A DNA stretch of 64,000 bases from an uncultured Lachnospiraceae bacterium (lineage in GTDB: Bacteria > Bacillota > Clostridia > Lachnospirales > Lachnospiraceae). Made by a program: the position numbers and the translations under genes. The stretch is from NCBI GenBank assembly GCA_910585215.1, contig CAJUDQ010000008.1, positions 14,663 through 78,662 of the forward strand, read 5' to 3'. Shown here piece after piece: positions 3,765 to 63,744 of this stretch; the stretch's first letter is position 1; each line of letters starts with the position of its first letter. The notes under the pieces were generated by a model that did no database searches, was not told where the DNA came from, and saw nothing but the letters and a program-made list of their open reading frames with translations.

Positions 3765-4487
3765 TCATCTCTTGATATACGGCACAATCACATCATAGAA
3801 CTTTTTTGTCCAGTCGGCATGGAAGTTAGCCATCTGTAGCCATTCTGTCTCATTCTCGATACTGACATTATTCAGCTGAATGAACACCTTGGATGATTTG
3901 ATGTCATCGCCACGATTCCATTGCAGTGTAGTACCCAGAACCGATTCGATTTCAGCTTTATGCGTGTAAAGGCTGTCAAAGGCATTCTTGTTTTCCTGTT
4001 TGCTTCCCCTGCCAAAGACAACCTCTGCTCGTGCCGCATCATAGTTCGCTACGCAGTAAAGATAGAATCCGCCGATTCCAAAGAACCCATTGATCCAGTT
4101 ATCTCTAGATGAACTAACATTTGAGAAGGAACCATCCTCTCCATGCGCCTTCTGGATAATTGGAAGTGCATACGTCCAGTATTTTCTCCGGAGTTCATGA
4201 CGACTGCCCGGCTGATCGGCATGAACTTCATTTTCATCACGCAGATAGAACATCAAATCTGCTCGATTTTCACCGTACAATTTGAACAGACGGCTCAAAA
4301 CAGACAGCTTGCTCTGGGTACTGGTATTTATCCACACATAAATGTCATCTCCGATCTCTAGCGATTTTGTAAATGCATCTGGATTGGTATTGAAGTGGAG
4401 TGCGATGTTTTCCTCCTCCGACATAGCTAGTTTTGTTATGATGGTTTTATCCTCCACATAAAGAATCTGAATAACTTTCTGGAACAT
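3765..4487 (-). CDS. DUF4268-like protein; its frame is open upstream to 4604
   Basis: 240-aa ORF. The C-terminal half (RKYWTYALPIIQKAHGEDGSFSNVSSSRDNWINGFFGIGGFYLYCVANYDAARAEVVFGRG...LQWNRGDDIKSSKVFI) matches my memory of DUF4268. See the frameshift finding. Confidence 0.6.
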   Translation of the reverse strand: MFQKVIQILYVEDKTIITKLAMSEEENIALHFNTNPDAFTKSLEIGDDIYVWINTSTQSKLSVLSRLFKLYGENRADLMFYLRDENEVHADQPGSRHELRRKYWTYALPIIQKAHGEDGSFSNVSSSRDNWINGFFGIGGFYLYCVANYDAARAEVVFGRGSKQENKNAFDSLYTHKAEIESVLGTTLQWNRGDDIKSSKVFIQLNNVSIENETEWLQMANFHADWTKKFYDVIVPYIKR

Positions 4488-4552
4488 CTCGACCCAGCTT
4501 GTTACCGGCTGCTCTGTATTCTTAAAGGTAAACTTAGCGATCAGGCGACTGG

Positions 4553-6292
4553 TTAGCTCACTCTCGTCCTCAAGGGTATAGGTGTCGAGCTGTTTTTTTC
4601 CGATTTATATTCTGTTACAGGCGCTGTCCAGATCGTCAATGCTCTGCCCATGAGATATGCACTGCGTTCTTCCAACTCTGCCAGCGTCCATTTATTCTTT
4701 TTGGCAATCCAAGTATTTATGCGGATACCGCTATCATCAAAACCATTCTGCATAGTTTTCTTTTTCGTAAATGAGCTATTGTTGTATTTTGAGTTATAGG
4801 CAATCAGTGTCAGATTTGCCATACGATGCAGCCACAACTCATGTATCTGCTCATAGTCATCGCCCAGTTCTTTCTGCCATACTAATGTAAGATGCTGCGG
4901 CATAATATGCTCAATTGAATATGTACCATCATCGCAATGACGGTATACATCCTTGTCCTCCGAAGAGCCAAAGTTCTCAAACCGTTCAAGAATATAAACC
5001 TTATTCTTGCTGTTCCTCAAATGCACCAGGCGTTCCTCAAATGCCGCCTTAAACTCCTCATCATCAGGGAAACGAGTACGCTCTTTCTTTGACAACAGTG
5101 CATATTTGAGTTTCTCAACATAGTTTTCCTCAGTGCCGTCGTATCGGATAATCTCTCTGTGCAGCATGAGGAAGATTTTATTCAAAGCATTTGTCGGCAA
5201 GTCACACATTGTCCTGCGGAACAGGTAATTCTCTGTGGTCAGGAAAATCTCTGTGACCTGTGCCAGCGTCAGCTTATTTTCGCTATAAAGACGCAGCACT
5301 TCAAGGAAGTACGGCCTTGTTACCGTCGTCTCCAAACGGTTCAGCCGGTCGATACATGCGTCAAGTACAGCGCTATCGGAATTACCATCAAGGAGAATTT
5401 GATAGCGTTTTGCGTAGGCCAGCATCTCAACAAGCAGCTGTTCTGTCTCGATCTTTCCGAGCTCCACAAAATCCTTAAAATTGATGTAGATTTTCTTCTG
5501 CTGTGGAATAGCCTGCTGCTTTACACTCAGGTAATCCCTGATGAAAGCACTAACATCATATTTCGTGCAGACCTCTATCTTATTCCAATATTTGTCGTAA
5601 TAGTTCTCTTGCTCCTTGGACGGCAAACTCATCAGGATGAAGTTCCTGATATTATCACCTTCGCTAAGATCGAGGCCAGTTGAGTTCAGGCTTTCAAAAA
5701 TGAGCTGCAGATTATCATCCATATCTAGCCAGATATTGATGATCTCCAAACCGCAGATCGCATCGTAAAGCTGGTCGATAGTAATTTCCTGCTTCTGAAT
5801 CCGGTCATAAAAATAGTCGTAGTTTACGGTCAAATTTGACTCGCGAACGTGTTCTGTCGGATCAGAGAACAGCTTGCCAAAAGCCGTCTGGTCGTTTTTG
5901 ACCAGCTTGAGCTTGATACGAATGTCTTCCGGCTTCCATTTATCTACGAGGTATTCCTCGAAAATACGTTGTTTAAGATTGGCTGTCTCTGGCACAATGA
6001 TACCCTTGTCAATCAGGTTATACATTGCGAGGAATAGCAGCGATACCGTAGTAAGACGCTGCTGACCGTCGATAATCAAAAACTCCTCATTGTGACCATC
6101 CGGATTATATACGGAAACAAAGCTCCCGAAGAAGTGACTCTTCTGGTGTCCCTTGATGATTTTTACGAGGTCATCATACAGCTGTTTGCAGTTCTCGGTC
6201 TTCCAGTCATAATTCCTCTGGTAAACTGGAATGACAAACCTCTTGTTGGAGCCCTCCAGATATTTAACGAATTTGCATTCAGAACCCTTCAT
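4553..6292 (-). CDS. GmrSD-like type IV restriction enzyme (N-terminal DUF262, C-terminal DUF1524 HNH-like nuclease)
   Basis: 579 aa. DUF262 motifs: FVIPVYQRNYDWK and IDGQQRLTT. DUF1524-type motifs: YSIEHIMPQ ... WLHRMANLTLIAYNSKYNNSSF. AAGGAGGAG RBS just upstream. Confidence 0.8.
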   Translation of the reverse strand: MKGSECKFVKYLEGSNKRFVIPVYQRNYDWKTENCKQLYDDLVKIIKGHQKSHFFGSFVSVYNPDGHNEEFLIIDGQQRLTTVSLLFLAMYNLIDKGIIVPETANLKQRIFEEYLVDKWKPEDIRIKLKLVKNDQTAFGKLFSDPTEHVRESNLTVNYDYFYDRIQKQEITIDQLYDAICGLEIINIWLDMDDNLQLIFESLNSTGLDLSEGDNIRNFILMSLPSKEQENYYDKYWNKIEVCTKYDVSAFIRDYLSVKQQAIPQQKKIYINFKDFVELGKIETEQLLVEMLAYAKRYQILLDGNSDSAVLDACIDRLNRLETTVTRPYFLEVLRLYSENKLTLAQVTEIFLTTENYLFRRTMCDLPTNALNKIFLMLHREIIRYDGTEENYVEKLKYALLSKKERTRFPDDEEFKAAFEERLVHLRNSKNKVYILERFENFGSSEDKDVYRHCDDGTYSIEHIMPQHLTLVWQKELGDDYEQIHELWLHRMANLTLIAYNSKYNNSSFTKKKTMQNGFDDSGIRINTWIAKKNKWTLAELEERSAYLMGRALTIWTAPVTEYKSEKNSSTPIPLRTRVS

Positions 6293-6880: not shown

Positions 6881-9706
6881 TTATTTTATTTCACTCTTGA
6901 GCAAACCAACATCATGGTTATTATTTTTCGGCTTTATTCTATCAAGAACCTTCTTTTCCACTACCTGCGTCCAATAAATCTTTAATTTCTTTCTTGCTCG
7001 TGTAATAGCAGTGTAAAATATACTATGAGTTATCAATTCGTCAATCTCATCCGTTATAATAATTTTTACAGAATCATATTCTAGGCCTTGCGCTTTGTGA
7101 ATTGATACAGCATATGCAATTTGAAATGGAACAATTGCCTTTGAAACACTATCATCATCTTCATCTGTACTTCTATTTTTATTTACTTCAAACCGGATAA
7201 TTGAATTGCCATTTTCAGCATTTCCAATAATCTCAAAATCATAGTCATCTTCATTTAAATCAATAAGCGGTCTATCAATTTCTATATCAAATTGAATACG
7301 TTCTGTTGGTTTGTCTGCATCAATAATGGTAAAGTCTACAATTCGAGCCTTCATGTTATTATGAATTATCGGTACTTGATCTTTATGTTGACTAAAAAAT
7401 TTATCAGCAGAATCATTAAATAGAATTGGATCACCAACCTTATATCGTTGTATGCCTCTCCATATCTCTTTGCTATTATTGTTTTCTTGCATAAAATGAT
7501 TAATGTTATTAATTCCGTATAGTCCACCATAATTCAAGCAAAGAATTATTTCATTTTCCTCTGCAGAAGTAAAAATAGATGGATCAAGGTTAGCAGAGAA
7601 TTCGCCCCCTTGTAATCTGTCAAGTACATCATCTTCCATTTTTCGCACATTGTCCCACAATGCCAGTAATTGCTTGCTGTTACTTCTATAAGGTTTTGTT
7701 AATTCACAAACAGCTGTTTTCGGCAAAAAATTACGAACAGCATCAAACCAATTACCAAATTCAATAGCCTCTATTTGGTATGTATCTCCAACCAAAATAA
7801 GAAGCTTAAATTTTGCTTGTTCAAGCAGTTCTTTCATATTTTGATTACTTACAGTGCTACACTCATCAATCACAAGGATATCATAATCTTGTTTTAAATC
7901 CTTTGTATTTATAAACTTAGTAATTGTCATAAATTCGCAATTTGATGATGCAACAACTTTTCGCTTAAGATTATTCACTGCAGGATTAGTGTGAGCCAAA
8001 TAGAGTCTGGAATAATTTTTAAAAAGATGCGCAATATGATTTATAAGAGTTGTTTTACCTGTTCCTGCAGATCCGTATATAACAGAAACTTGTGACTTAG
8101 TAAACATATTTATCAATGCCACCTTTTTTTCATCAGAATCAATTTGGTAATCTGTATTTTGAAGCCAATGGTTTACCATATTAGAATAGTTTTTTACACC
8201 ACTAACCGCCAAACTTTTTATTCTTTGAATAATTGCAACTGTATCGTCTTTATAACCCTCCATAAAAATATGATTATTCTTTATTAGTAACTTTCGAGCT
8301 TGCTGTTTTTTATTGGTATGTAACTTACCATTATATATATTAACAAGAGTATCTATGTCATCAAAAAAACCTAATTTGTAATGTCCGTTTTTATTTTTTT
8401 CCAATGGAGTAAAGAGTATTCCCTTTTGTTCTGTATTATTCCTAATAGTCCATGCCAAAAGTTCATATTCATGTCCATTTACATCAAGACAATCAAATAA
8501 ATCTGACAGGCTTGGAACATGTCCTTTTAAAGCAGAACAGAAGGGCATTGTGTCAAAGGGAATACATTTATTAGATAAATACAGATTTGATAGCAAATTA
8601 TTCCTCCCTATATACTTGCTTCTTTGCTCATAATAATCCCATTTCCATTGTTCTTCATATTGATCTTTAATAATTCTGTTCGTCATATGGTAAAGCAAAT
8701 AACAAAGAACATTACTGCTGGGTGCTCCTTCACTAATGATTGCACGACATTTATCAAGTATATGCCAAAAATGTCTTGTATCTGTCTTGGGTACTATACA
8801 CTCATGTACTTCTTGATAATGTGTGTCTGAAAACATAATAATTTCTGATAAATTTAATCCTGTTTCAGTTAAATATTTAGCAAGATTTCGCTGTTCCGCA
8901 TTACCTGGGGTAAATCCATTTCCATCGAACAATTTTGCCAAATTCTTAAACTCACATGGTCGTATGCTTACCTCCCAATCAACAATAATCCTAATCGGCA
9001 TTTGCTTGTCAAATAACTCAATATAATTATCGGCAAGAGCGAATTTAACCGCATAAAAGTCTGTAATTTCAATATCTGTAAAAGCAATAATGCGGTCTGT
9101 TTTACTTGCTCTATCATTTGCAGGAATAAAAGCAATCTCATAATATATTTTATCGCCAAAAAAGAATGGCTTAATTTTCTGAATGTAAAAACGATCAAAA
9201 CGAAAACCATTTTGAATAGGAGTTTTGTATTGATCTACCTTTTGAGCAATTTTCTCATAGTATTCTTTAAAACTATCATCTGCCTCTAACGGAAACTGTT
9301 CAAGATTGGAAAGTACATCCAACGAATATTCTTTATGCAAAAAATTTCTTATGCGGAAAAGATATTCATAATATTTAAACATCAATCGTTCAGAATTTTC
9401 TTCTTCTAAAGTACGATGAGAAACAGATACTTGCAAAAAATGATGAAAACGTGACAAATGACGCAAAAAACTCTCGTTTTTTACATATTTTACAGCTTTT
9501 TGAAGATTTTCATGTGAATCTTCTATATCATCACCGTTAGCATAGACTTTTAGCATAATATGTTCCACAAAATGTCGAAGTTGAGAAAGAATGTCTTGTG
9601 AAATCTGTCCTCTTGGTAAATTTCCCATATTGCTTATATGACGGCATATAACTTTATCTGTATTTAAAATTTGTTCATCTATTTGTAAATTAGTCTTTGT
9701 AACCAT
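6881..9706 (-). CDS. Large protein: unknown ~520-aa N-terminal region fused to a RecD/Dda-like SF1 helicase (AAA_30 plus UvrD_C_2 type)
   Basis: 941 aa. Walker A: VIYGSAGTGKTTLINH. Other motifs: LAHTNPAVNNLKRK; Walker B-like VIDECSTVS; LILVGDTYQIEAIEFGNWF; KPYRS; C-terminal AYAVSIHKAQGLEYDSVKIII ... FYTAITRARKKLKIYW. Confidence 0.8.
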   Translation of the reverse strand: MVTKTNLQIDEQILNTDKVICRHISNMGNLPRGQISQDILSQLRHFVEHIMLKVYANGDDIEDSHENLQKAVKYVKNESFLRHLSRFHHFLQVSVSHRTLEEENSERLMFKYYEYLFRIRNFLHKEYSLDVLSNLEQFPLEADDSFKEYYEKIAQKVDQYKTPIQNGFRFDRFYIQKIKPFFFGDKIYYEIAFIPANDRASKTDRIIAFTDIEITDFYAVKFALADNYIELFDKQMPIRIIVDWEVSIRPCEFKNLAKLFDGNGFTPGNAEQRNLAKYLTETGLNLSEIIMFSDTHYQEVHECIVPKTDTRHFWHILDKCRAIISEGAPSSNVLCYLLYHMTNRIIKDQYEEQWKWDYYEQRSKYIGRNNLLSNLYLSNKCIPFDTMPFCSALKGHVPSLSDLFDCLDVNGHEYELLAWTIRNNTEQKGILFTPLEKNKNGHYKLGFFDDIDTLVNIYNGKLHTNKKQQARKLLIKNNHIFMEGYKDDTVAIIQRIKSLAVSGVKNYSNMVNHWLQNTDYQIDSDEKKVALINMFTKSQVSVIYGSAGTGKTTLINHIAHLFKNYSRLYLAHTNPAVNNLKRKVVASSNCEFMTITKFINTKDLKQDYDILVIDECSTVSNQNMKELLEQAKFKLLILVGDTYQIEAIEFGNWFDAVRNFLPKTAVCELTKPYRSNSKQLLALWDNVRKMEDDVLDRLQGGEFSANLDPSIFTSAEENEIILCLNYGGLYGINNINHFMQENNNSKEIWRGIQRYKVGDPILFNDSADKFFSQHKDQVPIIHNNMKARIVDFTIIDADKPTERIQFDIEIDRPLIDLNEDDYDFEIIGNAENGNSIIRFEVNKNRSTDEDDDSVSKAIVPFQIAYAVSIHKAQGLEYDSVKIIITDEIDELITHSIFYTAITRARKKLKIYWTQVVEKKVLDRIKPKNNNHDVGLLKSEIK

Positions 9707-9779: not shown

Positions 9780-10247
9780 GAATCATCTACTTTCTTTTTG
9801 AACTATATTTCTCACTTTTCATCTTAATTCCATTTTCATCTTTCACCACATTACTCCACCGTCTTTTTTCTTTCTGAACAACCTCAAAAAGTTGCTTTGA
9901 TATTATAGCAGAATTGCTACCTGATGCCAAATAATGAGCTTCACTTTTCCTGTTGGCGAGAAAATTTTTCGTTTTTCAAGTTCTTTGATAATACCTATAA
10001 CGCTTTGTCCATCAAGATACAAATTAAATATCAACTTAACATTTTTAGCTTTTTCTTTATCAATTGATAAATGAATACCATTATTATATTTATAGCCATA
10101 GCACTTTCTATTATAAAGTTTTGAAGTTCCCTGTACTGTATGTTGCTTAATGCCCCATTTAATATTTTCGCTTCTGAACTCATTTTCAGCTTGTGCAATG
10201 GATTCCATTATAGCCACTATCAAATCATTCAAAGCCTTTTCACACAC
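9780..10247 (-). pseudogene. Large serine recombinase remnant lacking the catalytic N-terminus, with frame breaks
   Basis: 114-aa ORF: ...IAQAENEFRSENIKWGIKQHTVQGTSKLYNRKCYGYKYNNGIHLSIDKEKAKNVKLIFNLYLDGQSVIGIIKELEKRKIFSPTGK, a Recombinase-domain pattern. A second piece in another frame (about 9780-9900) reads ISKQLFEVVQKEKRRWSNVVKDENGIKMKSEKYSSKRK*. Confidence 0.7.
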
Positions 10248-10385
10248 CTACTTTTTCACCATGACATCAACGCGATACACTCAACATGAGTACAAAATTA
10301 GAACATATTCCCACAAAATCGCGGAAATATAGGCAATATTTATACAGTAGTAATACCGTTCGTGCAACCCATTTCCCAAAAATCC
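10229..10385 (-). repeat. Module-head repeat, truncated copy: promoter region plus the first ~10 codons of the small gene, joined to the recombinase fragment
   Basis: 10289-10385 aligns with 14063-14160 (aacatattcccacAaaatcGcgGaaatat... against aacatattcccacGaaatcAcgAaaatat...). 10229-10287 aligns with 2787-2846. Confidence 0.7.
10339..10367 (-). promoter_or_regulatory. Sigma70-like promoter in the truncated module head (TTGCAC-17-TATAAA)
   Basis: Minus strand reads TTGCACgaacggtattactactgTATAAA. It sits at the position equivalent to the promoter at 14113-14141 and points toward the recombinase remnant and the helicase gene. Confidence 0.4.
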
Positions 10386-10412: not shown

Positions 10413-11117
10413 TTATAACACATCTTTTTTCTCGTATACTTTTTTACATCGATTTAAAATTGTCGACACCAAAAATTGATTATCAGTACTTATCAAATGA
10501 TATTTTTTGTTTACTCTCGGAGTAAAAATAGCCCTCATGATTCCATTTTGATCTGTTTTAATTTGTCCTTTTAAGCCTGTTACATTATCTTTTTGTATAT
10601 AAAATCTAATTTTCACCCCATGCACAGAAACCTTTTTATATAAATTCAACAATTTTTCATCTGTTGTTGATTCACACAATAATGTACAATGTTTTTTTAA
10701 ATGTTCAATTCTATCGGTTTGTTTTTTATAGTCTTTTTCATATAAAAAATCTAAATCTTTTCCAATAACGTACAATTCTACCGCATCGTCACCAAAACTA
10801 TCATATATATTTTTTATTTCCCCGTGAGTATACTCTACTTTATTAGTCAACTTAGATTGTAAGAACAAAATAATACCCAACAGTAAGTTGGCAAATATAA
10901 TATATAAAATTCCGAATTTGGCATTAAGATAAAAGGGAATCATAGACAAATTATTTTCTTGTTCTAAACTTGACAAACTAACAAAGCAAGGTATATTTAT
11001 CCATAAAATTATAATAAAACAAATTGTAAAAAATAAACTCTTTGTCAACTCATTTTTCCATACAATGTTAAACACTAACATCAAAATTAGAATTAGCACA
11101 ATAATAGATATGTTCAT
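10413..11117 (-). CDS. Membrane protein: 3 predicted N-terminal TM helices plus a ~130-aa soluble C-terminal domain of unknown function
   Basis: 234 aa. Hydrophobic segments: NISIIVLILILMLVFNIVW, SLFFTICFIIILWINIPCFVSL and FGILYIIFANLLLGIILFLQS. It is the last gene of the kinase/rSAM/UDG-like operon, 80 nt after the UDG-like gene. Confidence 0.6.
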   Translation of the reverse strand: MNISIIVLILILMLVFNIVWKNELTKSLFFTICFIIILWINIPCFVSLSSLEQENNLSMIPFYLNAKFGILYIIFANLLLGIILFLQSKLTNKVEYTHGEIKNIYDSFGDDAVELYVIGKDLDFLYEKDYKKQTDRIEHLKKHCTLLCESTTDEKLLNLYKKVSVHGVKIRFYIQKDNVTGLKGQIKTDQNGIMRAIFTPRVNKKYHLISTDNQFLVSTILNRCKKVYEKKDVL

Positions 11118-11197
11118 TCACTTCCCCATCCTTCCTTATCCATAAAGTATATTTTAATTGCGCAAACTATTTTGCTAACTTATTAAAATCATAACAT

Positions 11198-11746
11198 CTA
11201 TAATAGCTGTCTAATTATCTTTTCTACCCCCTCAATGTAATCCTGCATATTTTTTCTTTTATAAACATGAATATATGAGGGATGGTGTATAGGAACATAA
11301 TAGATTCCTTCAATTTTTTCATAATGATATTCAAAACCATTCCATTTTTCAAATCCAATTTTCTTTTTTTTCGCAACTGCTGAATATACCTTTTCTCCCA
11401 ATAAAAAAATAATTTTAGGAGACATTGTATGTATTTCACTTAACAAATGTTCAAAACAACAATCAATTTCACTTTTATCAGGATAACGAAGCTTTTGCTG
11501 CTCTGTTAAAGGTAAGCATTTAACTAAATTAGTTTTATATGCAATTACTTCTTCACACTTTTTTTCAATTTTGTGGATTATCATGCCCGTATTCGTTTCT
11601 GGCGATAATGGTAATTCAGTATCAGATATCACTTTTTTAGCTGATAAACCAACCCAAAAAATTTGACATTCCTTTTCTACATCTAGTAATGGCTTTTGGT
11701 TAAAGCATAAGCCACATTTTTGACACTTTCGTATTTGTTCGATCAT
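11198..11746 (-). CDS. Uracil-DNA glycosylase superfamily protein, family-4-like with a divergent active-site loop
   Basis: 182 aa. N-terminal CQKCGLC. TNLVKCLP matches the TN.VKCRPP motif and HHPSYI matches the HPS motif. The family-4 GE(A/G)PG loop position reads WVGLSAKK. The start overlaps the radical SAM stop (shared nt 11746). Confidence 0.7.
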   Translation of the reverse strand: MIEQIRKCQKCGLCFNQKPLLDVEKECQIFWVGLSAKKVISDTELPLSPETNTGMIIHKIEKKCEEVIAYKTNLVKCLPLTEQQKLRYPDKSEIDCCFEHLLSEIHTMSPKIIFLLGEKVYSAVAKKKKIGFEKWNGFEYHYEKIEGIYYVPIHHPSYIHVYKRKNMQDYIEGVEKIIRQLL

Positions 11747-13080
11747 TATCCTTCTCCTGTTAACCTTTGTGTTTTTAGTATATATTCATTCAATACTTCG
11801 TCAGATTCCATACTATAATTTCCAAAATCAAAATTAAACTGAGACCTTCCTTTAAACTGACTTATTGTATCATTAAACTGGCAATTCTGAATTATACCCG
11901 TATCTTGCATAATCTCATTATATAGTTGTGTACCATCATAAGGTCTGAACTGAAACACACTTGTTCTAAATGTTCCGTCTGTTCTTAGTGAAAATTCCTT
12001 TAATTCCTTTGCCAATTCAAATGTCTTTTGAAAGTCCTCCTTTGTTTCTTTAGGAAATCCATATATAAAATAACCCTTTAAATCAATTCCATTTCGCAAA
12101 ATTTCTTGAGAAACTTTTATAATATCATTATAATCTCCCAATTTGTTTATTCTATTTCTTACTGATTTCGAACCAGATTCGATACCAATAAACAATTCTT
12201 TACATCCTCCAACTCGAAGCTCTTTTATTTTTTCAATTGCGTTTACTAATGATAATACATGTACCATTCCTCTCCAACTCAACTGTGTAAATTGAGAAAA
12301 GATATGATTCGCCATATCTATACTCCTACTACTGCGTAAAAACAAATCATCCAAAATGCGAACACTTTGTATATCTGGATATGTAGATAAAATTTCATGA
12401 ATTTCTTTTATAACACTCTCTTCTGTACGAATCCTAATCGTCACGTCTTTATTTAAGCTCCTAGCCCCACCGCAAAATGCACAATCAAACATACACCCTC
12501 TTGATGTAATAATTGCAATTTCTTTCTCCCCATAATGATTTATGACTATTTCATTTCCCAGGTATTTTCGATTCAAAAAAATGTTTGATATATCCTCGGG
12601 AAAATATATGGAATTTCTATTTACCCTATAAACAAATTTCGAATCCATTTGTTCTTCTGGCTTTTGACTGCAATTTTCTGAAACAATTTGGGGAATAATA
12701 AATTCACCTTCACCAATAATAATATTTAATGTATTGGAAACATTCCAATTTAAAATTTTATAATAAATACTTTTAACAGCCTGTCCCCCTATAAAACACT
12801 TACAGTTTACATGAATGCTTTCAACAATATTTTTAACCAACTCATAATTTTGTGTAAAAATATTAATACCTACAAAATCAGGTTTAGTTTTATTTATATA
12901 GGAAATTATATTTGGCACAGATTTTCTTTCTTTTACACAATCTATAATTTCAACATCTATATCATTAATCCTTTCCAAATATGTTGCTATATACCCCAGA
13001 CCCAATGGAGATAAATATTGTTCATTTTCATTTGTGGAATCCCAAAAAATAGGAGAATTAATTAGTACAAACTTTTTCAT
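11746..13080 (-). CDS. B12-binding-domain (class B) radical SAM enzyme
   Basis: The ORF runs 11746-13092. I prefer ATG 13080 (MKKFVLINSP...) with GGAGGG 5 nt upstream; it forms an ATGA overlap with the kinase stop. The N-terminal Rossmann-like region matches the B12-binding-domain pattern (LGLGYIATYL...DFVGINIF...IGG). The radical SAM cluster motif is ITSRGCMFDCAFCGG (CX3CX2C). Confidence 0.85.
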   Translation of the reverse strand: MKKFVLINSPIFWDSTNENEQYLSPLGLGYIATYLERINDIDVEIIDCVKERKSVPNIISYINKTKPDFVGINIFTQNYELVKNIVESIHVNCKCFIGGQAVKSIYYKILNWNVSNTLNIIIGEGEFIIPQIVSENCSQKPEEQMDSKFVYRVNRNSIYFPEDISNIFLNRKYLGNEIVINHYGEKEIAIITSRGCMFDCAFCGGARSLNKDVTIRIRTEESVIKEIHEILSTYPDIQSVRILDDLFLRSSRSIDMANHIFSQFTQLSWRGMVHVLSLVNAIEKIKELRVGGCKELFIGIESGSKSVRNRINKLGDYNDIIKVSQEILRNGIDLKGYFIYGFPKETKEDFQKTFELAKELKEFSLRTDGTFRTSVFQFRPYDGTQLYNEIMQDTGIIQNCQFNDTISQFKGRSQFNFDFGNYSMESDEVLNEYILKTQRLTGEG

Positions 13081-13694
13081 TTCGCCCTCCATTTTTTTAT
13101 AATGTAAGAAACAATCTCTTCAACATTGTTTTTCAAATCAGCATTATTATTAATGCATAAAACATCTACATTTCTTTTCTCTAATTCTAAAATCCCTTTA
13201 TCCATATAAAAAAGTTCATTATATGATTGGTTTCCCTTTTCAAATCTTGTTAATACTTTTCTTTCTGACAGCCTTTTTTGTAATACATTCTCATCCGCAA
13301 ACACAGCCACCTGTAAATCAGGTTTTATAATCTTTGAATTTAACTCCAAAAGAAAACCACTATTAACACAATCCATTTGCTGCAAAATCAAAGATGATAA
13401 AATATATCTATCTGTAATAACAATTTTTCCCTTTTTCAATTCGGGCAGAATCTCATTTTCTATATGCTCATACCTATCTGCTGCAACCAAACAAGCTAAA
13501 CTTATCCCCGAATGATTTTCAGCGAATTTTCTTACAAAAGAACCACATTCCGTATTAGTTGGTTCTTTTGTCGTATATGTAGCATATCCTCTAAATTCTA
13601 GTCTTGTTTTAACTGACTCTATAAGTGTCGATTTACCAACACCATTTGGTCCATCAACAGAAACCAAAAAGCCATTTGTACTAATTTTTAACAT
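13077..13694 (-). CDS. Thymidylate-kinase-like P-loop nucleotide kinase
   Basis: 205 aa. Walker A: VSVDGPNGVGKSTLIE. TKEPTNTECG matches the REPGGT region and DRYILSSLILQQ matches DRY..SS.AYQ. LID-like LQKRLSERK. Confidence 0.8.
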   Translation of the reverse strand: MLKISTNGFLVSVDGPNGVGKSTLIESVKTRLEFRGYATYTTKEPTNTECGSFVRKFAENHSGISLACLVAADRYEHIENEILPELKKGKIVITDRYILSSLILQQMDCVNSGFLLELNSKIIKPDLQVAVFADENVLQKRLSERKVLTRFEKGNQSYNELFYMDKGILELEKRNVDVLCINNNADLKNNVEEIVSYIIKKWRAK

Positions 13695-13720: not shown

Positions 13721-14044
13721 TTAAATAATCCCAAAATGCTTCAACGCATCCTTTATCGTTTCCGCTGTCGGATGTTTCCTCGGCCGTTTCAATTCCTCTA
13801 CCGCATTAGGAGCATCATAAATCGGCAATCCTGACTCCCTCTTGACCTCTGCGATATATGTGGTATGTACTTTGAAGCCATATTTCGCTTCTATGTACTC
13901 CTTAATCATTTTGTAAGTAACACACTCTTTCGGCTTGTATGCTTCAGCTCTCTTGGCGATATTATCAAGCGGCACTTTGCCCTCACCCTCGCCAAACTCG
14001 ACTTTTACGTTGATTACGCTGTCGGGTTTTTTGTGGGAAAGCAT
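13721..14044 (-). CDS. Small conserved module-head protein (107-112 aa), function unknown; intact copy
   Basis: ORF 13721-14059 starts at GTG; ATG 14044 (MLSHKKPDSV...) is more likely. Sequence: ...VTYKMIKEYIEAKYGFKVHTTYIAEVKRESGLPIYDAPNAVEELKRPRKHPTAETIKDALKHFGII. A degenerate paralog lies at 16776-17097. Confidence 0.55.
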   Translation of the reverse strand: MLSHKKPDSVINVKVEFGEGEGKVPLDNIAKRAEAYKPKECVTYKMIKEYIEAKYGFKVHTTYIAEVKRESGLPIYDAPNAVEELKRPRKHPTAETIKDALKHFGII

Positions 14045-14165
14045 TACAATCGTCTCCACATGAATACCAAATCAAAACATATTCCCACGAAATCACGAAA
14101 ATATGAGAAACATTTTTACAATACTAAGACTGTTCATACAATCCCTTTCTCACAAATACATACTC
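14030..14165 (-). repeat. Module-head repeat, full copy (5' UTR and promoter region of the small gene)
   Basis: Homologous to 10229-10385 and, in degenerate form, to 17083-17130. Confidence 0.7.
14113..14141 (-). promoter_or_regulatory. Sigma70-like promoter of the small gene and kinase/rSAM operon (TTGTAT-17-TAAAAA)
   Basis: Minus strand reads TTGTATgaacagtcttagtattgTAAAAAtg. It is conserved in position with 10339-10367. Confidence 0.4.
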
Positions 14166-14381: not shown

Positions 14382-14861
14382 TTATTTTTCTTTCTGTATA
14401 AGATCAGAAAATCTATCTGACATTTCTCTTCCCACGGCTTCTAATTCAAATTTAATTTCTTTATTAAATTCTTTGAACTCTGGAAGCAATTCTAAGTCTT
14501 TTAATCTATATTTGCTTGCTTTCCTTCCAAAAGAGAAACGCCAAGTATGTATAAGGTTAAATAGTGATGCATAATATAACAACTCCTCATAAGACATCTT
14601 GTTTCTTGGAATCAAAATAGTAACCGAATCTCCACCATTACCTTTAGGTAAAAATTTACCATTTTGCACAGTTGCATAACCAAGTCCTGATATACAAATG
14701 GCAGGCCCCTCAAAAACTTTATCTTCATTAAATGGATCTACATAACGTGCAACACCGTTATTTAATGTTGTACTTGTTATAAATGGTATTTCCCCAAAAT
14801 CATAATCTTCAACACCAGAAGATTTTGCAACACTTATATTAAACAACTGAGATATTTTCAT
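14382..14861 (-). CDS. Restriction-modification specificity subunit with a single target-recognition domain (half-size HsdS/BcgIB-like)
   Basis: 159 aa. Starts 3 nt after the methyltransferase stop. MKISQLFNISVAKSSG...IPFITSTTLNNGVARYV...ATVQNGKF resembles one Methylase_S TRD. Confidence 0.6.
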   Translation of the reverse strand: MKISQLFNISVAKSSGVEDYDFGEIPFITSTTLNNGVARYVDPFNEDKVFEGPAICISGLGYATVQNGKFLPKGNGGDSVTILIPRNKMSYEELLYYASLFNLIHTWRFSFGRKASKYRLKDLELLPEFKEFNKEIKFELEAVGREMSDRFSDLIQKEK

Positions 14862-14864
14862 ACT

Positions 14865-16712
14865 TTATAAATCCTTTCTCATTTGTTGCAATAACATTTC
14901 AAAATATTCTTTTTTCATTTGTTCATTAACCAAATAAAAATCTACTTTTTCCGTTCCTAGATAATTTTGAGGTATCAATTCAAGTTTAATATCATCCTTC
15001 TTAATAGCAATATTTTGACATATCCCTACTTCTTGTTTTGGAATAATATCATTTATTATATATTCTTTTATTTTCGATGAATATATATCTAATTCACTCT
15101 TTGCGTTATTATGAACTCGTCTCTTTTTATGTTTCTTAAATCCATCATTAGTTATTTTCAACCATAAAATTTCCTTTTCTATAGGATGTGGGATGCCTTT
15201 TTTTATAATTACTCCTATAGATTCTACTGATGCTTGAGGATAGAATAACTCTTGGGGAAAAGAAATAACTGAAACTAACATATTATTTTTCAATAAATTT
15301 TTTCTCCAATTAAAATCTGCTCCCGAATACATGACTGAGACAGGCAATACAGCAAATAACAGTCCATTATTTTGCATCTGGTTCAAAGCATAATCAATAA
15401 AAACATGTTCTTGTTCATCACCCTTTTTTAGAGCAAAGGGCGGATTCATCAATGTTTTTGTTACTGGTGGTCTTGAATTTTTCTCATGTATATATTTTGC
15501 ACTCAAATCGCCATTCCTTTCATGTCTCTGAAGGTTTATAGCAAAACAATTCTCGTTAATAATATTATTTTTTCCATCACCTCTAAAAATCATATTTACA
15601 ATAGCTAGAACTGCAACACTAGCTTGCTGTTCAATTCCAAAAATTTTATGCTTTTTAAAATATTGTATATGTTCTGGATATTCTAACTTTACTTTATCAT
15701 ATGCAGCAACTAAAAATCCGCCTGTTCCACAAGCAGGGTCAAAAATAATATCTGAAGCATTAATATCCAAAATTTGGCACGCAAAATTTGTAATATGTCT
15801 AGGGGTTAAAACAATTCCTATATCTTTGGCTCCATTACCATATTTTAAAAATACTTCATAAAACTTTCCTAGCACATCATTACTACTATTCATTGCCGCT
15901 TTAACATTTATTTTTCTTAATAAAAAGAATACTTTTACTATTGCTGCTTTATATTTGGCTTTAGCTGAGTTTTCTTGAGGAAGCTTCAACTCTATTTGTT
16001 CAGCATATTCTCTTTTTGAATGCTCTATTAACACATCTTCTGCTCTATTATTTATATCTTTGATAAAAACTTCTGGTGAAGCATCAAAATTAGGCAATGT
16101 ATCAGAAATCATAGAAAGTAACACAGATGCCATAACTGACGATCTTTGGTCTTTATTTATGGATGCTTTATGCAACTCTTCATTAATTTCCTCAGCAATA
16201 TCCAATAAAATATTTTCTTCTTCAATAAGTTCATTTAATTGATTTGTTCGATTTTCTACTAAATACTTTGCCTGTTCAACAGATAAAAGACTTGTTATTT
16301 CTTTATCATTATACATTACAGATTTGATTTCTCCATTACCAAATATAACTGCTGTTTTTATTAGATATTTATCAACTTCATTCCCCGCAACACCACTCAC
16401 AATAAAGGCTCTACACATTGGATTCTTATTTATACATTGAGCATATTCTACAGCCTCACTGAATGCTTGTTCTAATTGTGCATGCATAGCCTTGGCTTCT
16501 ATTACCCAAAAAACATCCTCTTCTACTTTAACAACATATTCTGGTTTTTGTCTACCTAAATATGGACCTATTAAAATATTATCTAAACATTCTTGTTGAG
16601 TATATAATTGTCCCTGAGGATCTCTCTCTGGATTCTTTATATTCCAATTTAATTTTTCCAAATCATTTCTAATATAGACATATGATGAAAACTCAGAATT
16701 TCTACTAGCCAT
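14865..16712 (-). CDS. Fused PD-(D/E)XK endonuclease and N6-adenine DNA methyltransferase (type IIB/IIG, BcgIA-like)
   Basis: The ORF runs 14865-16754. ATG 16712 (MASRNSEF...) has AAGGAG upstream. The N-terminus has PEYVVKVEEDVFWVIEAKA (ExK). Motif I is FDPACGTGGFLVAA and motif IV is LMNPPFALKKG. Confidence 0.8.
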   Translation of the reverse strand: MASRNSEFSSYVYIRNDLEKLNWNIKNPERDPQGQLYTQQECLDNILIGPYLGRQKPEYVVKVEEDVFWVIEAKAMHAQLEQAFSEAVEYAQCINKNPMCRAFIVSGVAGNEVDKYLIKTAVIFGNGEIKSVMYNDKEITSLLSVEQAKYLVENRTNQLNELIEEENILLDIAEEINEELHKASINKDQRSSVMASVLLSMISDTLPNFDASPEVFIKDINNRAEDVLIEHSKREYAEQIELKLPQENSAKAKYKAAIVKVFFLLRKINVKAAMNSSNDVLGKFYEVFLKYGNGAKDIGIVLTPRHITNFACQILDINASDIIFDPACGTGGFLVAAYDKVKLEYPEHIQYFKKHKIFGIEQQASVAVLAIVNMIFRGDGKNNIINENCFAINLQRHERNGDLSAKYIHEKNSRPPVTKTLMNPPFALKKGDEQEHVFIDYALNQMQNNGLLFAVLPVSVMYSGADFNWRKNLLKNNMLVSVISFPQELFYPQASVESIGVIIKKGIPHPIEKEILWLKITNDGFKKHKKRRVHNNAKSELDIYSSKIKEYIINDIIPKQEVGICQNIAIKKDDIKLELIPQNYLGTEKVDFYLVNEQMKKEYFEMLLQQMRKDL

Positions 16713-16775
16713 CTTTCTTTTCTCCTTAGTTTTACTTCTATTAATAAGTTCCACCTAGTTTTGGACAAAACAGTT

Positions 16776-17097
16776 CCGTAATAATAAGTCAACGCATCTT
16801 TTATCGCTTCCACTTTCTCCACCATTGGATACTTTCTCAGCTGTTTCAATTCCTCTACCACATTAGGAGTATCATACATCGGCAATCCTAATTCCCTCTT
16901 TACCTCTGCGATATATGTGGTATGTATTTTAAAGCCATATTTCGCTTCTATGTACTCTTTAACCATCCTGTAGGTGATTCGCTCCTTCGGCTTTTTACGA
17001 TATTATCAATCGGCATTCTGCTTTCGCCCTTTCCTAGCTCCACTGTTACGTTGATTACGCTGTAGGTTTTTTGTAGGAAAGCATTACTACCGTCCCT
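16776..17097 (-). pseudogene. Degenerate second copy of the small module-head gene
   Basis: Aligns with 13721-14059 at nucleotide level. It has a 1-nt deletion after codon ~7 (aaaaaacct-acagcgtaa against aaaaaacccgacagcgtaatc) and a ~12-nt deletion near 16990. The ORF-track piece 16649-16966 (MVKEYIEAKYGFKIHTTYIAEVKRELGLPMYDTPNVVEELKQLRKYP...) reads through into the methyltransferase start. Confidence 0.65.
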
Positions 17098-17144
17098 ACA
17101 TAATTAGTATAAAGAAACATATCTATCATCTCAATTTTTCCCTC

Positions 17145-18079: not shown

Positions 18080-19258
18080 TTAATGATGAAACAGCCGAAT
18101 CCCTGTAAACGCCATTACCATATCATATTTATCCGCACACTCAATCACCAAATCATCTCTTACGGACCCTCCCGGCTGCGCGATATATTTCACACCACTC
18201 TTATGTGCCCTTTCAATATTATCAGAAAACGGGAAAAATGCATCTGAACCACAGATAACATCCTGATTCTTATCCAGCCATGCTCTCTTCTCCTCTGCCG
18301 TAAATACCGGAGGCTTCTCCTTAAATATCTTCTGCCATGCACCATCAGCAAGCACATCCATATATTCATCGCCAATATACAAATCTATCGCATTATCTCT
18401 GTCTGCACGTCCCAGTTTCTCCACAAACTTCAGTCCCAAAACCTGCGGCGACTGACGCAGAAACCAGTTATCCGCCTTCTGTCCTGCCAGTCTGGTACAA
18501 TGAATCCTTGACTGTTGTCCTGCACCGATTCCTATTGCCTGCCCGTTCTTTACATAACACACAGAATTTGACTGTGTATACTTTAAAGTAATCAGTGAAA
18601 TCTTCATATCAATCAGCGCAGATGCCGGTATTTCCTTATTCTTTGTCACAATATTCGACAACAAATCTCCATTGACATCCAGCTCATTGCGCCCCTGCTC
18701 AAATGTTATGCCAAACACCTGCTTTTTCTCCAGCTCTGCCGGCACATAAGAAGGGTCTATCTGAATTACATTATAATTTCCTTTCTTCTTTTCTTTTAGC
18801 AGCGCCAGCGCCTCATCTGTATATCCCGGCGCAATCACTCCGTCAGAAACCTCCCGCTTAATCAGCCTCGCAGTATCCACATCACAAACATCAGACAGCG
18901 CAATAAAATCTCCAAACGACGACATTCTGTCTGCTCCTCTTGCCCTTGCATAAGCACTTGCAAGTGGTGAAAGGTCTCCTAAATCATCTACCCAGTAAAT
19001 TTTTGCCAGCGTGTCATCCAGAGGAAGTCCTACTGCTGCTCCTGCCGGTGAAACATGCTTAAAAGATGTTGCTGCCGGAAGCTTTGTTGCTGCCTTTAGT
19101 TCCGAAACAAGCTGCCAGCCGTTAAATGCATCAAGAAAGTTAATATATCCTGGTTTCCCGTTTAACACTGTCACTGGAAGCTCACTTCCATCCTCCATAA
19201 AAATTCTTGAAGGCTTCTGATTTGGATTACATCCATATTTTAACTGAATTTCGTTCAT
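18080..19258 (-). CDS. purH: AICAR transformylase-only PurH-type enzyme (phosphoribosylaminoimidazolecarboxamide formyltransferase)
   Basis: 392 aa. MNEIQLKYGCNPNQKP...FKHVSPAGAAVG...GIGAGQQSRIHCTRLA...ICGSDAFFPFSDNIERAHKSGVKYIAQPGGSVRDD, the AICARFT domain without an MGS/IMPCH domain. Confidence 0.85.
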   Translation of the reverse strand: MNEIQLKYGCNPNQKPSRIFMEDGSELPVTVLNGKPGYINFLDAFNGWQLVSELKAATKLPAATSFKHVSPAGAAVGLPLDDTLAKIYWVDDLGDLSPLASAYARARGADRMSSFGDFIALSDVCDVDTARLIKREVSDGVIAPGYTDEALALLKEKKKGNYNVIQIDPSYVPAELEKKQVFGITFEQGRNELDVNGDLLSNIVTKNKEIPASALIDMKISLITLKYTQSNSVCYVKNGQAIGIGAGQQSRIHCTRLAGQKADNWFLRQSPQVLGLKFVEKLGRADRDNAIDLYIGDEYMDVLADGAWQKIFKEKPPVFTAEEKRAWLDKNQDVICGSDAFFPFSDNIERAHKSGVKYIAQPGGSVRDDLVIECADKYDMVMAFTGIRLFHH

Positions 19259-19338
19259 AATTCTGCTCCTTTTCTTCTAATTATTTTGTATAAATTCCCG
19301 CCTGTCTTTTCCAAATTATACTCCTTATCCCCACACCC

Positions 19339-20055
19339 TTATTTATTTTTATTTATAATTCTTGTTTCATATGCTCCGCTTTCAATATCAATAAATCTCA
19401 CAAACAGCGATACTCGGTTATCCTCATTCAAATTTGTCCATATTACATTTGCCACAGTATCAATATCATCACTTCTTATTTCCACAAGCTTCGGCTCACC
19501 CTCGAAACTTGGCAGCGGATTTCCGTCATGCATGTAAGTATGCAGAAAACGCCCCTCGCCTGCCAGAGGATTATCATAAGAAAATGTATATCTGTTGCAG
19601 CAGTCCGGATTTCCATTATCACTTTTCAAAATAGACATGGAATATTCAAATTTTCCATTCTCCACCTGAAGAATACTTGAAATTCTTGGAGTGAAATTTG
19701 GACCATCCGGCTCAAATTCACGCGTTCTCAACGCCTGCTCAAATGTAAGTCCCTCGCTCATTTTTTCATAAATTGTATCTGTCTGGTCGCCGTTTGTCAC
19801 AATCGTCTGATTTCCCATTACTCTCACCGGCGCATAGATAATCAGACTTGGGTCCTCCAATTTCGAAGGGTCAAACGCCTGTGTACGGATTCCTTCTCCA
19901 TCCTCTACAAATACTCTGTTTCTGCTGTTTGAACTTCTCCCCATAATAAAATACGCCATAACTGCCGTCTTTCCGTCTTTTGACCTTCCAATCAAAATTC
20001 CTCTGCCCGGATATGCGTTTTCCTTTAACTCATGATACAATGACATTTTTTTCAT
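19339..20055 (-). CDS. purO: IMP cyclohydrolase, PurO (archaeal) type
   Basis: The ORF track extends to 20268. The upstream 71 codons overlap the ZTP riboswitch and are rejected. ATG 20055 (MKKMSLYHELKENAYPGRGILIGRSKDGKTAVMAYFIMGRSSNSRNRVF...) has GAGAGGAAAG upstream. Confidence 0.8.
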   Translation of the reverse strand: MKKMSLYHELKENAYPGRGILIGRSKDGKTAVMAYFIMGRSSNSRNRVFVEDGEGIRTQAFDPSKLEDPSLIIYAPVRVMGNQTIVTNGDQTDTIYEKMSEGLTFEQALRTREFEPDGPNFTPRISSILQVENGKFEYSMSILKSDNGNPDCCNRYTFSYDNPLAGEGRFLHTYMHDGNPLPSFEGEPKLVEIRSDDIDTVANVIWTNLNEDNRVSLFVRFIDIESGAYETRIINKNK

Positions 20056-20164
20056 TTCTTTCCTCTCTTTCTGCCATTTCGGCATGTAAAATTTTTGGTT
20101 TTGACATGCAAACAACCTAAGCCACCTTTCAGACTGCTTATAGGAAATTTGCGAAACACTTTCA

Positions 20165-20296
20165 TGTAAAATAAAAATACCGGCCTTCTGGGCGCACAAA
20201 TTCGTACACGCCCAGGCGGTCGGCATTTTTTTATTCGTACTCCCTACAGGTTCCCCTGCTGCTGACATTGTCAGCTTTTCCGCCAGTCATACGAAC
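20165..20296 (-). ncRNA. ZTP (pfl-motif) riboswitch with an intrinsic terminator expression platform
   Basis: Minus strand reads TTCGTATGACTGGCGGAAAAGC...GCAGGGGAACCTGTAGGGAGTACGAA - linker - CCGACCGCCTGGGCG. The terminator stem is CTGGCG...: CTGGGCG(20215-20209)/CGCCCAG(20194-20188), extended by ACCG/CGGT and followed by ATTTTTATTTT. The terminator 5' arm overlaps the conserved CCGCCTGGGC pseudoknot segment. Confidence 0.8.
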
Positions 20297-20374
20297 AGAT
20301 ATATTTAATATACATGAAAATCATAAATATTTCAAGAACTTTTTAGGAAAATTTGTTATTATCTGGTATATCAT

Positions 20375-57699: not shown

Positions 57700-58086
57700 T
57701 TAGTAGCTACCTGCCTCAATCATTTCAACAGCCAATCTGTATTTTTCAGCCAATTCATTATTTTCCTCTTTTTCACATGCAGCTATTTCTATATTAACAG
57801 CCTCGAGAAGTCTTTCTTTTGATATAATCTTATACTCTCTTTCCAGTTCGCTGTCACCAGGATAACATTCGGGAAAAGTCCAATCAAAATAAAATTCTTT
57901 CTTTTTAGTGATTCCATATATCAATACTTCTATAGGCCCATAACAATATTTATAAATTATCTCCATATTTCCTTTACTATTATATTGAAAACATGGATCT
58001 TTATAAAAAAATTTTCCCATTTCGAATATTGGCATCAATTTCTGCTTTTTCACAAGTTCCTCCAAATAAATATTATATATTCTCAT
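57700..58086 (-). CDS. Hypothetical protein (128 aa), a possible extra immunity-type gene downstream of the toxin pair
   Basis: ORF only. AT-rich like its two upstream neighbours. Confidence 0.35.
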   Translation of the reverse strand: MRIYNIYLEELVKKQKLMPIFEMGKFFYKDPCFQYNSKGNMEIIYKYCYGPIEVLIYGITKKKEFYFDWTFPECYPGDSELEREYKIISKERLLEAVNIEIAACEKEENNELAEKYRLAVEMIEAGSY

Positions 58087-58284
58087 ATAACTTATGTTAA
58101 ATAATCTTTAGTGATAGCAAACTGGCTATATTTTAACATAAAAACAGATAAAAAATCAATAACAAAAATCTTCCTATACACAGACATATTTATGCACTTC
58201 CTAAATATGCACAAGTTATACATACAAAATCATCTACAGTATTTTGTATGTACAGAAACAGATTTTTGACAATGCTTTTGTATC

Positions 58285-63730: not shown

Positions 63731-63744
63731 TATTTAAAATGTAA

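Follow-up and report, generated by a model that had tools for sequence, protein, structure and literature searches.

A 2026 review of radical S-adenosylmethionine (rSAM) enzymes of the B12 type lists no DNA- or phage-linked member besides OxsB, the only such enzyme known to act on deoxynucleotides (2'-deoxyadenosine phosphates) (PMC12931638). Phage thymidine hypermodification uses 5-HMUDK, aGPT-Pplase, and an rSAM isomerase, and offers a precedent for a kinase, a helix-hairpin-helix (HhH) glycosylase-like transferase, and an rSAM enzyme acting together on DNA (PMC8989533). Two further systems put an rSAM protein together with a kinase, namely the prokaryotic viperins and the PADLOC candidate PDC-M51. 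Here we describe a minus-strand operon of four genes (10413-13694) that can be compared with each of these. It lies in a 64,000-nucleotide stretch of DNA (hereafter, the window) from an uncultured Lachnospiraceae bacterium (assembly GCA_910585215.1, contig CAJUDQ010000008.1, positions 14,663 to 78,662). The genes encode a Tmk-like kinase, an rSAM enzyme with a B12-binding-type domain, a protein resembling uracil-DNA glycosylase (UDG), and a membrane protein. They belong to a mobile and widespread cassette, an uncharacterized gene set that is probably devoted to rSAM-based nucleotide or DNA modification in defense islands. We tentatively propose, as a possibility that could well prove wrong, that the cassette serves to synthesize a modified pyrimidine deoxynucleotide, whose base is acted on by the glycosylase once it is in DNA.

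A preliminary description of the window had called the operon unrecognized. No publication on the set of rSAM, UDG-like, and kinase genes was found in the literature, but the rSAM and the kinase are matched by PDC-M51. The adjacent window genes were hit by models M51A (rSAM; 3.8e-16, 57 bits) and M51B (kinase; 2e-12, 45 bits), each alignment extending almost from end to end of the window protein. The similarity is nevertheless distant, the scores being low in a library that gives this bioinformatic candidate neither curated thresholds nor a function, and PDC-M51 has no model that fits the UDG-like or the membrane protein. The preliminary description had also seen in the operon the logic of phage hypermodification. 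The parts list is indeed the same, with a kinase, a glycosylase-fold protein, and an rSAM enzyme, but no homology underlies it: comparisons with phage M6 gp51, gp53, and gp54 gave nothing beyond the P-loop (E 0.027), a GPW turn (hhalign probability 0.6%), and the CxxxCxxC motif (probability 2.6%). Moreover, the cassette has a Tmk-family kinase and a B12-type rSAM enzyme, lacks a synthase for 5-hydroxymethyldeoxyuridine (5-hmdU), and is mostly cellular. The viperins share with the operon an rSAM enzyme plus a nucleotide kinase in defense islands and an antiviral nucleotide as a plausible product, but they have neither the B12-type domain nor a glycosylase partner. Membership in the prokaryotic viperins was rejected, no viperin model being present among the PADLOC matches or among the best 25 of the 31 NCBIfam matches (E <= 0.01). 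OxsB is only 15% identical to the window rSAM and has extra N-terminal and helix-bundle domains, and its companion OxsA has no counterpart in the cassette, from which an OxsA-like HD phosphohydrolase is absent.

Gene layout and predicted products

The four genes are co-directional minus-strand open reading frames (ORFs) that encode, in order of transcription, the kinase (13077..13694, 205 amino acids [aa]), the rSAM enzyme with its B12-binding-type Rossmann domain (11746..13080, 444 aa), the UDG-like protein (11198..11746, 182 aa), and the accessory membrane protein (10413..11117, 234 aa). The junctions were read directly. The kinase stop and the rSAM start form ATGA at 13080-13077, with GGAGGG upstream, and the rSAM stop and UDG-like start form TAATG, in which the A at 11746 is common to both genes. 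A spacer of 80 nucleotides (11118-11197) precedes the fourth gene. The extent of the operon, the ATGA overlap, the shared nucleotide at 11746, and the 80-nucleotide spacer had been given in the preliminary description and were confirmed. The rSAM ORF is open to 13092 (448 aa), but the true start is probably the ATG at 13080, because rSAM homologues begin at MKKF and have the same length of 444 aa. About 80 nucleotides past the last gene, a minus-strand hairpin with a 12-bp stem and a T-rich tail (10304..10331) is the likely operon terminator. It lies within a repeated cassette-head element (described below), and a scan for terminator-like structures found a nearly identical hairpin at 14078-14105. 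A promoter scan of this AT-rich DNA was uninformative (36 sites against 26 expected), and Rfam gave no RNA elements in or near the operon, cobalamin riboswitches included.

The kinase matches PF02223 (Thymidylate_kin) at 2e-30 and scores 106.3 bits with TIGR00041 (cutoff 83.25). All three dTMP kinase signatures were found, the P-loop (DGPNGVGKST), the DR(Y/H/F) motif (DRY), and the LID arginines (RLSERKVLTRFE). The preliminary reading of Tmk signatures in DGPNGVGKST and DRYILSSL was therefore correct. The protein can be aligned to the TMK of S. aureus and to other TMK structures, and here the thymine pocket departs from the canonical form. ACLVAADRYEH and SSLILQ of the window kinase stand opposite AMLFAASRREH and SSLAYQ of S. 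aureus TMK, which places Val at the position of the thymine-stacking Phe and Leu at that of the Tyr of AYQ. In TMK structures the Phe of LLF/MLF...R..H stacks on the thymine base, and the Tyr of AYQ also belongs to the pocket. Val and Leu/Val are kept at these two positions in 17 of 17 cassette kinases, and the base pocket appears to have been remodeled. As judged from their sequences, the cassette kinases are a distinct Tmk subfamily specific to these cassettes, with the signature LACLVAADRYxH plus DRY(I/L/V)xSxL(I/V)LQ common to the window kinase and to those of the sister cassettes described below. The gene is missing from many related cassettes and in the window is located in a low-GC island. 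Both this patchy presence and the departure of the base pocket from the canonical form count against the kinase being a housekeeping enzyme.

The rSAM enzyme has the class B architecture, that is, a CxxxCxxC core (CMFDCAFC; PF04055, 2.5e-16) plus an N-terminal B12-binding-type Rossmann domain (PF02310, 1.1e-11, 45 bits against a cutoff of 32). No characterized equivalog of NCBIfam came near its cutoff. When an AlphaFold2 (AF2) model of the protein (pLDDT 75) was submitted to Foldseek, the top matches were OxsB, the diol dehydratase AprD4, and QCMT. OxsB was ranked first, and AprD4, structurally no poorer a match (TM 0.63-0.65), had the best TM-score. The domain and motif assignments of the preliminary description thus agree with the two Pfam profiles and with the fold match to OxsB and QCMT.

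The UDG-like protein matches PF03167 (3.7e-14), has the motifs CQKCGLC, TNLVKCLP, and HHPSY, and aligns to 1l9g and to 1vk2, the family-4 UDG of T. maritima. Six residues (C8, C11, C77, C97, N73, and H155) have counterparts in 1vk2 and do not vary across 30 homologues. The contacts of family 4 are kept in these residues, namely four cysteines for the [4Fe-4S] cluster, Asn in NxVKC, and His in the motif B HPS, and the protein shares them and the fold with family-4 UDGs and the UdgX clade. The GE(A/G)PG of motif A has become an invariant WVGLSAK and the stacking Phe a Leu. In the 1vk2 alignment WVGLSAKK stands opposite FVGEGPGE, which agrees with the preliminary placement of this segment at the water-activating loop of a family-4 scaffold. 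Two additions, KLRYP and VYKRK, are specific to the UDG-like family. The scores fall below the cutoffs of TIGR00758 (45.1 against 125.3 bits), NF040953 (48.1 against 250), and TIGR03914 (22.9 against 189.95). Family-4 membership was rejected on the replaced motif A and the first two of these scores. Membership in the rSAM-linked UdgX clade was rejected on the third, and with it went the earlier link of the operon to the TIGRFAM catalogue entry for rSAM-UDG pairs. The partner rSAM of the TIGR03914 clade is not known to have a B12 domain. On the alignment evidence the protein is a UDG-superfamily member derived from the family-4 scaffold.

The fourth protein has three N-terminal transmembrane segments, as first described, followed by an alpha/beta soluble domain of ~135 aa (AF2 model pLDDT 83). 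It has no match in Pfam, NCBIfam, PADLOC, or PHROG, and a profile search of PDB sequences returned only noise. The soluble domain, which the preliminary description gave as ~130 aa and could not place, has a PLD/Zucchini-like fold in the model, but the histidine of HKD is missing. The Foldseek matches were Zucchini 4gem (2.8e-5), PPK (1.4e-4), SauUSI (2.8e-4), and PLD3, all with probability 1.0. The invariant residues include K183-G-Q185-I-K187-x-D189, C148-E149, and N213-Q214, and an Ignavibacteria homologue has R-G-R-M-K at the K183-D189 strand. The catalytic HxK(x)4D of the PLD superfamily is absent in that no invariant His is present on the strand, the register of the motif having been set by secondary structure rather than by superposition. 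A canonical HKD PLD enzyme was therefore rejected for this protein. As modeled, the PLD-like domain probably binds phosphate or another ligand, and catalysis of the usual kind is unlikely.

Distribution and a sister cassette

A metagenome scan seeded on the UDG-like protein, whose loci are partly redundant, found the rSAM gene directly upstream of the UDG-like gene in 69 of the 71 loci with room for it, the kinase in 58 of 64, and the fourth gene in 3 of 62. Gut Lachnospiraceae, with Anaerobutyricum hallii and Roseburia inulinivorans among them, have plentiful relatives of the rSAM enzyme at 74-93% identity. All of the neighborhoods of close Lachnospiraceae relatives that were looked up have the kinase, rSAM, and UDG-like genes in the same order with overlapping ends, and the surrounding genes vary. 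Most Firmicutes copies have the Tmk-like kinase. At 42-47% identity the rSAM relatives are from Clostridia, Chitinophagales, Sphingobacteriaceae, and Nitrospirota, where the UDG-like gene is kept and the kinase is absent. Recurrence across phyla marks the rSAM enzyme plus the UDG-like protein as the conserved core; the kinase is its frequent partner, and the membrane protein is seldom present. The preliminary description had made recurrence outside this strain a test of its proposal, and the genes do recur widely and in several phyla. Its four-gene unit is correct insofar as the genes are coupled and conserved, but the conserved unit is the pair or the trio.

The fourth gene is an accessory outside the obligate unit, genuine though seldom found. 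Its product has 82 homologue clusters, and the gene follows the rSAM-UDG pair both where the kinase is present (loci L006/7) and where it is not (L172-175). A distant homologue lies directly upstream of the rSAM gene in locus L015, from an Ignavibacteria metagenome-assembled genome (hhalign probability 95%, E 3e-8). In A. hallii loci the trio is followed by a soluble 238-aa protein that has no relation to the fourth protein, and the membrane proteins of L012 and L174 have no detectable relation to each other.

Fusion of the core pair into a single protein was found in three clusters at 50% identity (P0337, P0345, and P0351), two of which lack the Fe-S cysteines in the UDG-like part. These data make it barely credible that the operon is a set of chance neighbors in which an ordinary tmk and a membrane protein happen to lie beside an unrelated metabolic rSAM and a repair UDG. 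Annotation pipelines would give three of the four generic names, and the kinase passes the equivalog cutoff for dTMP kinase. However, the genes overlap, the kinase subfamily appears to be specific to these cassettes, and the synteny across phyla and the fusions already contradict such a reading.

Other genes accompany the core in some lineages. In L013 the rSAM-UDG pair is followed by a MazG-like pyrophosphohydrolase gene (7850-8212), and an ECF transporter adjoins the locus. In L012 an 8xMP-like membrane protein (4476-4964; 28 bits, slightly under the Pfam cutoff) is encoded 3' of the UDG-like gene. The pairs of Bacteroidota and Ignavibacteria always have two genes ahead of them, one for a regulator of the RmrA/CapP type, in which a helix-turn-helix (HTH) domain is joined to an M78 peptidase (195 bits), and a PIN-like gene of ~170 aa. 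These RmrA/CapH-CapP-like and PIN-like genes occupy 4405-5980 of L016, 4432-6001 of L017, and 3601-5170 of L019, and the short contig of L015 reaches the PIN-like gene only (711-1223). The HTH-M78 and PIN-like genes could be a regulator of the pair or a separate toxin-antitoxin module traveling with it.

Such partners bear on an alternative in which the product of the cassette is a nucleoside or nucleotide analogue that acts, like oxetanocin or the viperin products, as a toxin or antiviral, whether secreted or kept in the cell. The glycosylase would provide self-resistance by clearing the analogue from the producer's DNA, and the membrane protein would provide export or immunity. The top Foldseek rank of OxsB and the best TM-score of AprD4 agree with this alternative, as do the kinase and pyrophosphatase partners, the membrane proteins of some versions (the fourth protein and the 8xMP-like protein), and the ECF transporter. 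We nevertheless consider it unlikely. The cassette has no OxsA-like HD phosphohydrolase, no viperin model was matched, membrane partners are rare, and the fourth protein is PLD-like rather than of a transporter fold. It should be noted that this alternative overlaps our proposal; the two diverge solely in what the glycosylase does and where the product goes.

A sister cassette was found in 13 actinobacterial, prophage, and plasmid loci. Its hosts are Micromonospora, Saccharothrix, Actinosynnema, Streptomyces plasmids, prophages, and the temperate Streptomyces phage SF3, the sole isolate phage genome to have a relative. In SF3 (NC_028952, 25382-28755; locus L171) gp35-gp38 are an AlkA-like glycosylase, a B12-domain rSAM enzyme, a Tmk-like kinase, and a NUDIX protein, and the genes lie between the lysis genes and the integrase, a moron position. 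The other loci are L020-L023 and L092-L099. The sister rSAM enzymes are 27-31% identical to that of the window, and the sister kinases, which are of the same subfamily, are 36-51% identical. The two cassettes thus have in common a homologous rSAM enzyme, the kinase subfamily, a glycosylase-fold partner, tight packing, and residence on mobile elements. They differ in that the sister cassette has an AlkA-type HhH-GPD protein in place of the UDG-like protein, another gene order, an added NUDIX hydrolase (3' in most copies), and no membrane protein. The sister glycosylase (260-280 aa, encoded upstream) is annotated as 'hypothetical' and Pfam gives no match for it. However, a profile built from nine of these proteins matches AlkA-type HhH-GPD structures (2jhj, 3.7e-8; 1diz, 4e-7), and the column of the catalytic Asp is invariant. 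An identity of the actinobacterial cassette with PDC-M51 was considered and rejected, the sister proteins matching the M51 models more weakly than do the window proteins. The kinase-rSAM pair is the most widely shared element.

The AlkA-like and NUDIX partners also raise the possibility of a module for DNA repair or nucleotide-pool sanitation that mobile elements carry. The glycosylase would remove a lesion, NUDIX or MazG proteins would clear damaged deoxynucleoside triphosphates (dNTPs), the rSAM enzyme would repair or recycle the damaged nucleotide, and the kinase would return it to the pool. Repair is the classical role of AlkA-type and UDG-type proteins, MutT-type NUDIX proteins sanitize, and spore photoproduct lyase is an rSAM enzyme that repairs DNA (PMC8989533). 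We find this reading quite improbable, however. The cassette is patchy and horizontally spread, with copies among defense genes and at the moron site of a prophage. Neither the kinase nor the UDG-like protein has kept its housekeeping form, and the optional membrane protein does not suit a repair function.

Proposed function

From these comparisons we argue that glycosylase chemistry is integral to cassette function. Our strongest argument is that two unrelated glycosylase folds serve the same rSAM-kinase module, which suggests that the function includes a glycosylase-type step on DNA. The existence of Tmk-like kinase, NUDIX, and MazG-like (L013) partners argues equally strongly for a free-nucleotide step. 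A nucleotide-level substrate is further suggested by the kinase being better conserved between the two cassettes than the rSAM enzyme and by the pairing of kinase and rSAM in PDC-M51. A nucleotide route is favored because the kinase-rSAM pair is so widely shared and a Tmk-family kinase would have no obvious role on DNA. Also in favor of the proposal are the altered base-contact residues of the kinase and the UDG-like protein, OxsB and AprD4 as structural neighbors of the rSAM enzyme, and the recurrent defense genes around the cassettes.

We infer each step of the following scheme. The rSAM enzyme would modify a pyrimidine deoxynucleoside monophosphate, by C-methylation or by some other radical reaction at the base or the sugar. 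Where a NUDIX or MazG protein is present, the monophosphate would be made from the triphosphate. The Tmk-like kinase with its remodeled pocket would phosphorylate the product toward the dNTP pool, and polymerases would incorporate it, chiefly into fast-replicating phage DNA. The UDG-like Fe-S protein, its Asn and His kept and its motif A rebuilt, would recognize that base in DNA and excise it. The resulting abasic sites would cripple heavily substituted phage DNA, whereas sparse sites would be handled by host base-excision repair. The outcome would be the killing of substituted phage DNA or the cleaning of host DNA. The PLD-like membrane protein would be an optional effector or a sensor of phosphate ligands that the trio does not need. 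It is conceivable, though by no means assured, that the cassettes represent a previously unknown immune or modification chemistry, homologous to no characterized defense, restriction-modification, or hypermodification system, in which a marked base is made and then excised. A cobalamin-type rSAM enzyme would produce a carbon-modified nucleotide or DNA base, glycosylases recruited twice and independently (from the UDG and AlkA folds) would read or remove it, and in some versions the PLD-like membrane protein without the histidine would be an effector of a new kind.

Several points weigh against this scheme. The loss of the family-4 motif A could mean that the UDG-like protein no longer cuts. 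Kinase-less rSAM-UDG loci are many (L013-L019 and L172-175), and the proposal does not account for the part played by the membrane protein. The fusions would be explained equally well by a glycosylase-like domain that presents a flipped base to the rSAM enzyme. The rSAM enzyme may not depend on B12, since AprD4 has the same domain and reportedly uses no cobalamin. Finally, the copies in L001 and L172 lie in polysaccharide gene clusters rather than in defense islands, and 'defense-associated' is a descriptive label that has no background rate behind it.

Some of these points are better accommodated if modification takes place directly on DNA. The glycosylase-fold protein would be an adaptor that flips the base or a transferase like the aGPT-Pplase of phages, the rSAM enzyme would methylate or otherwise modify the base in place to give a protective or epigenetic mark on host or element DNA, and the kinase, NUDIX, and MazG proteins would only manage the pool. 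This would fit the rSAM enzyme and glycosylase-like protein as an invariant core that is fused in three clusters, the kinase-less versions, and the loss of motif A (and, in two of the fused forms, of the Fe-S cysteines as well). It would also fit the phage precedent of a kinase, an HhH glycosylase-like transferase, and an rSAM enzyme (PMC8989533) and one copy (L091) in a viral contig beside a terminase, a portal gene, and DNA methyltransferases. We regard direct modification as rather doubtful, although it is the main alternative and worth serious attention. It leaves a Tmk-family kinase, NUDIX, and MazG with nothing clear to do on DNA, and the catalytic Asp is retained in the AlkA-like partner. 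No cognate nuclease is present to use the mark, and there is no homology to the M6 enzymes. Moreover, among isolate phages the only relative is that of SF3, at a moron position by the integrase. Our preferred reading continues to be synthesis of a modified nucleotide followed by glycosylase action on DNA.

Genomic setting and implications

At 29-35% GC, the segment of the window that includes the operon (6-18 kb) is poorer in GC than its flanks (38-44%). On the immediate downstream side lies a minus-strand gene for a 941-aa SF1/RecD-like helicase (6881-9706), which PADLOC PDC-S53 matches over its full length (E = 0, 1189 bits). Between the two, just past a cassette head, is a truncated large serine recombinase (9903-10247, minus strand) with a Recombinase domain (CcrA-like, 4e-11) and no N-terminal catalytic domain. 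On the upstream side (14382-16754, minus strand) are a 629-aa N6-adenine methyltransferase of type IIG/type I-like form (REase_MTase_IIG, 1e-42) and, after it, a 159-aa protein with a single S-subunit half-domain. The earlier account of a conserved, coupled operon in a defense island next to a restriction-modification (R-M) system is borne out, PDC-S53 and the type IIG R-M genes flanking it.

The island looks like a modular cassette array. Cassette-head repeats with blocks 62-86% identical were found at ~10251-10383, 13741-14157, and 16789-17122, and they precede, one each, the R-M system, the four-gene operon, and the recombinase fragment plus PDC-S53 helicase. The head upstream of the operon (13721..14157, minus strand) consists of the hairpin at 14078-14105 and a 112-aa ORF (13721-14059). 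A paralogue of this small ORF is present in another head (16649-16966), and the 12-bp-stem hairpin recurs at 10304-10331. Only in the closest relatives (L006/7, L177, L178, and L185) is the cassette preceded by a homologue of the small ORF. The head and its ORF thus travel with close relatives and are not part of the conserved system. The small gene that the preliminary description placed upstream, at 13721-14141, does lie there but belongs to the repeated head.

Elsewhere the neighbors of the cassette include DarT plus Macro, a type I R-M system plus NB-ARC-TPR, Metallophos-HATPase, GmrSD, an OLD/AAA_15 ATPase, SIR2, and AbiH. Among 82 non-redundant large proteins encoded within 6 kb of cassettes, strong PADLOC matches were to GajA (5e-190), PtuA (1e-134), AriA, MADS, Old, Hhe, and PDC-S37.

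Several other features of the window were recorded. The edge of the island is marked by ordinary housekeeping genes for IMP cyclohydrolase and purH (18080-20268), with a ZMP/ZTP riboswitch (20203-20300, minus strand; 53.6 bits) ahead of them. Two proteins of ~650 aa (20375-22324, minus strand, and 25323-27257, plus strand) join a [FeFe]-hydrogenase-like N-terminus to a chemotaxis-receptor C-terminal domain. A 721-aa ankyrin-repeat protein (27444-29609, minus strand) matches at its C-terminus the sigma-70-like MzaA of the anti-phage system MZA (3e-36, well below cutoff). Low-GC stretches at 30001-34000 and 58001-60000 (31-33%) may be horizontally acquired segments. A tmRNA gene with the tag peptide AEDNLAYAA is at 63395-63733 (plus strand); tmRNA genes often serve as integration sites for mobile elements.

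If the proposed function is correct, the cassette would be the first case of a B12-type rSAM enzyme tied to DNA or nucleotide immunity, and a new natural nucleotide or DNA base could emerge from it. An antiviral nucleotide, if new, would be of chemical and pharmacological interest. The divergent UDG and Tmk families, now annotated as housekeeping, would also gain a function. The fusions, the two glycosylase folds, and the dedicated kinase subfamily give a direct experimental handle on that function. Since two unrelated folds appear in the same gene set, the shared substrate of both glycosylases should be the rSAM product. The cassette is common in human-gut Lachnospiraceae (Anaerobutyricum and Roseburia) and is also found on Streptomyces plasmids and prophages, and it consequently bears on gut phage-host dynamics and on phage therapy.

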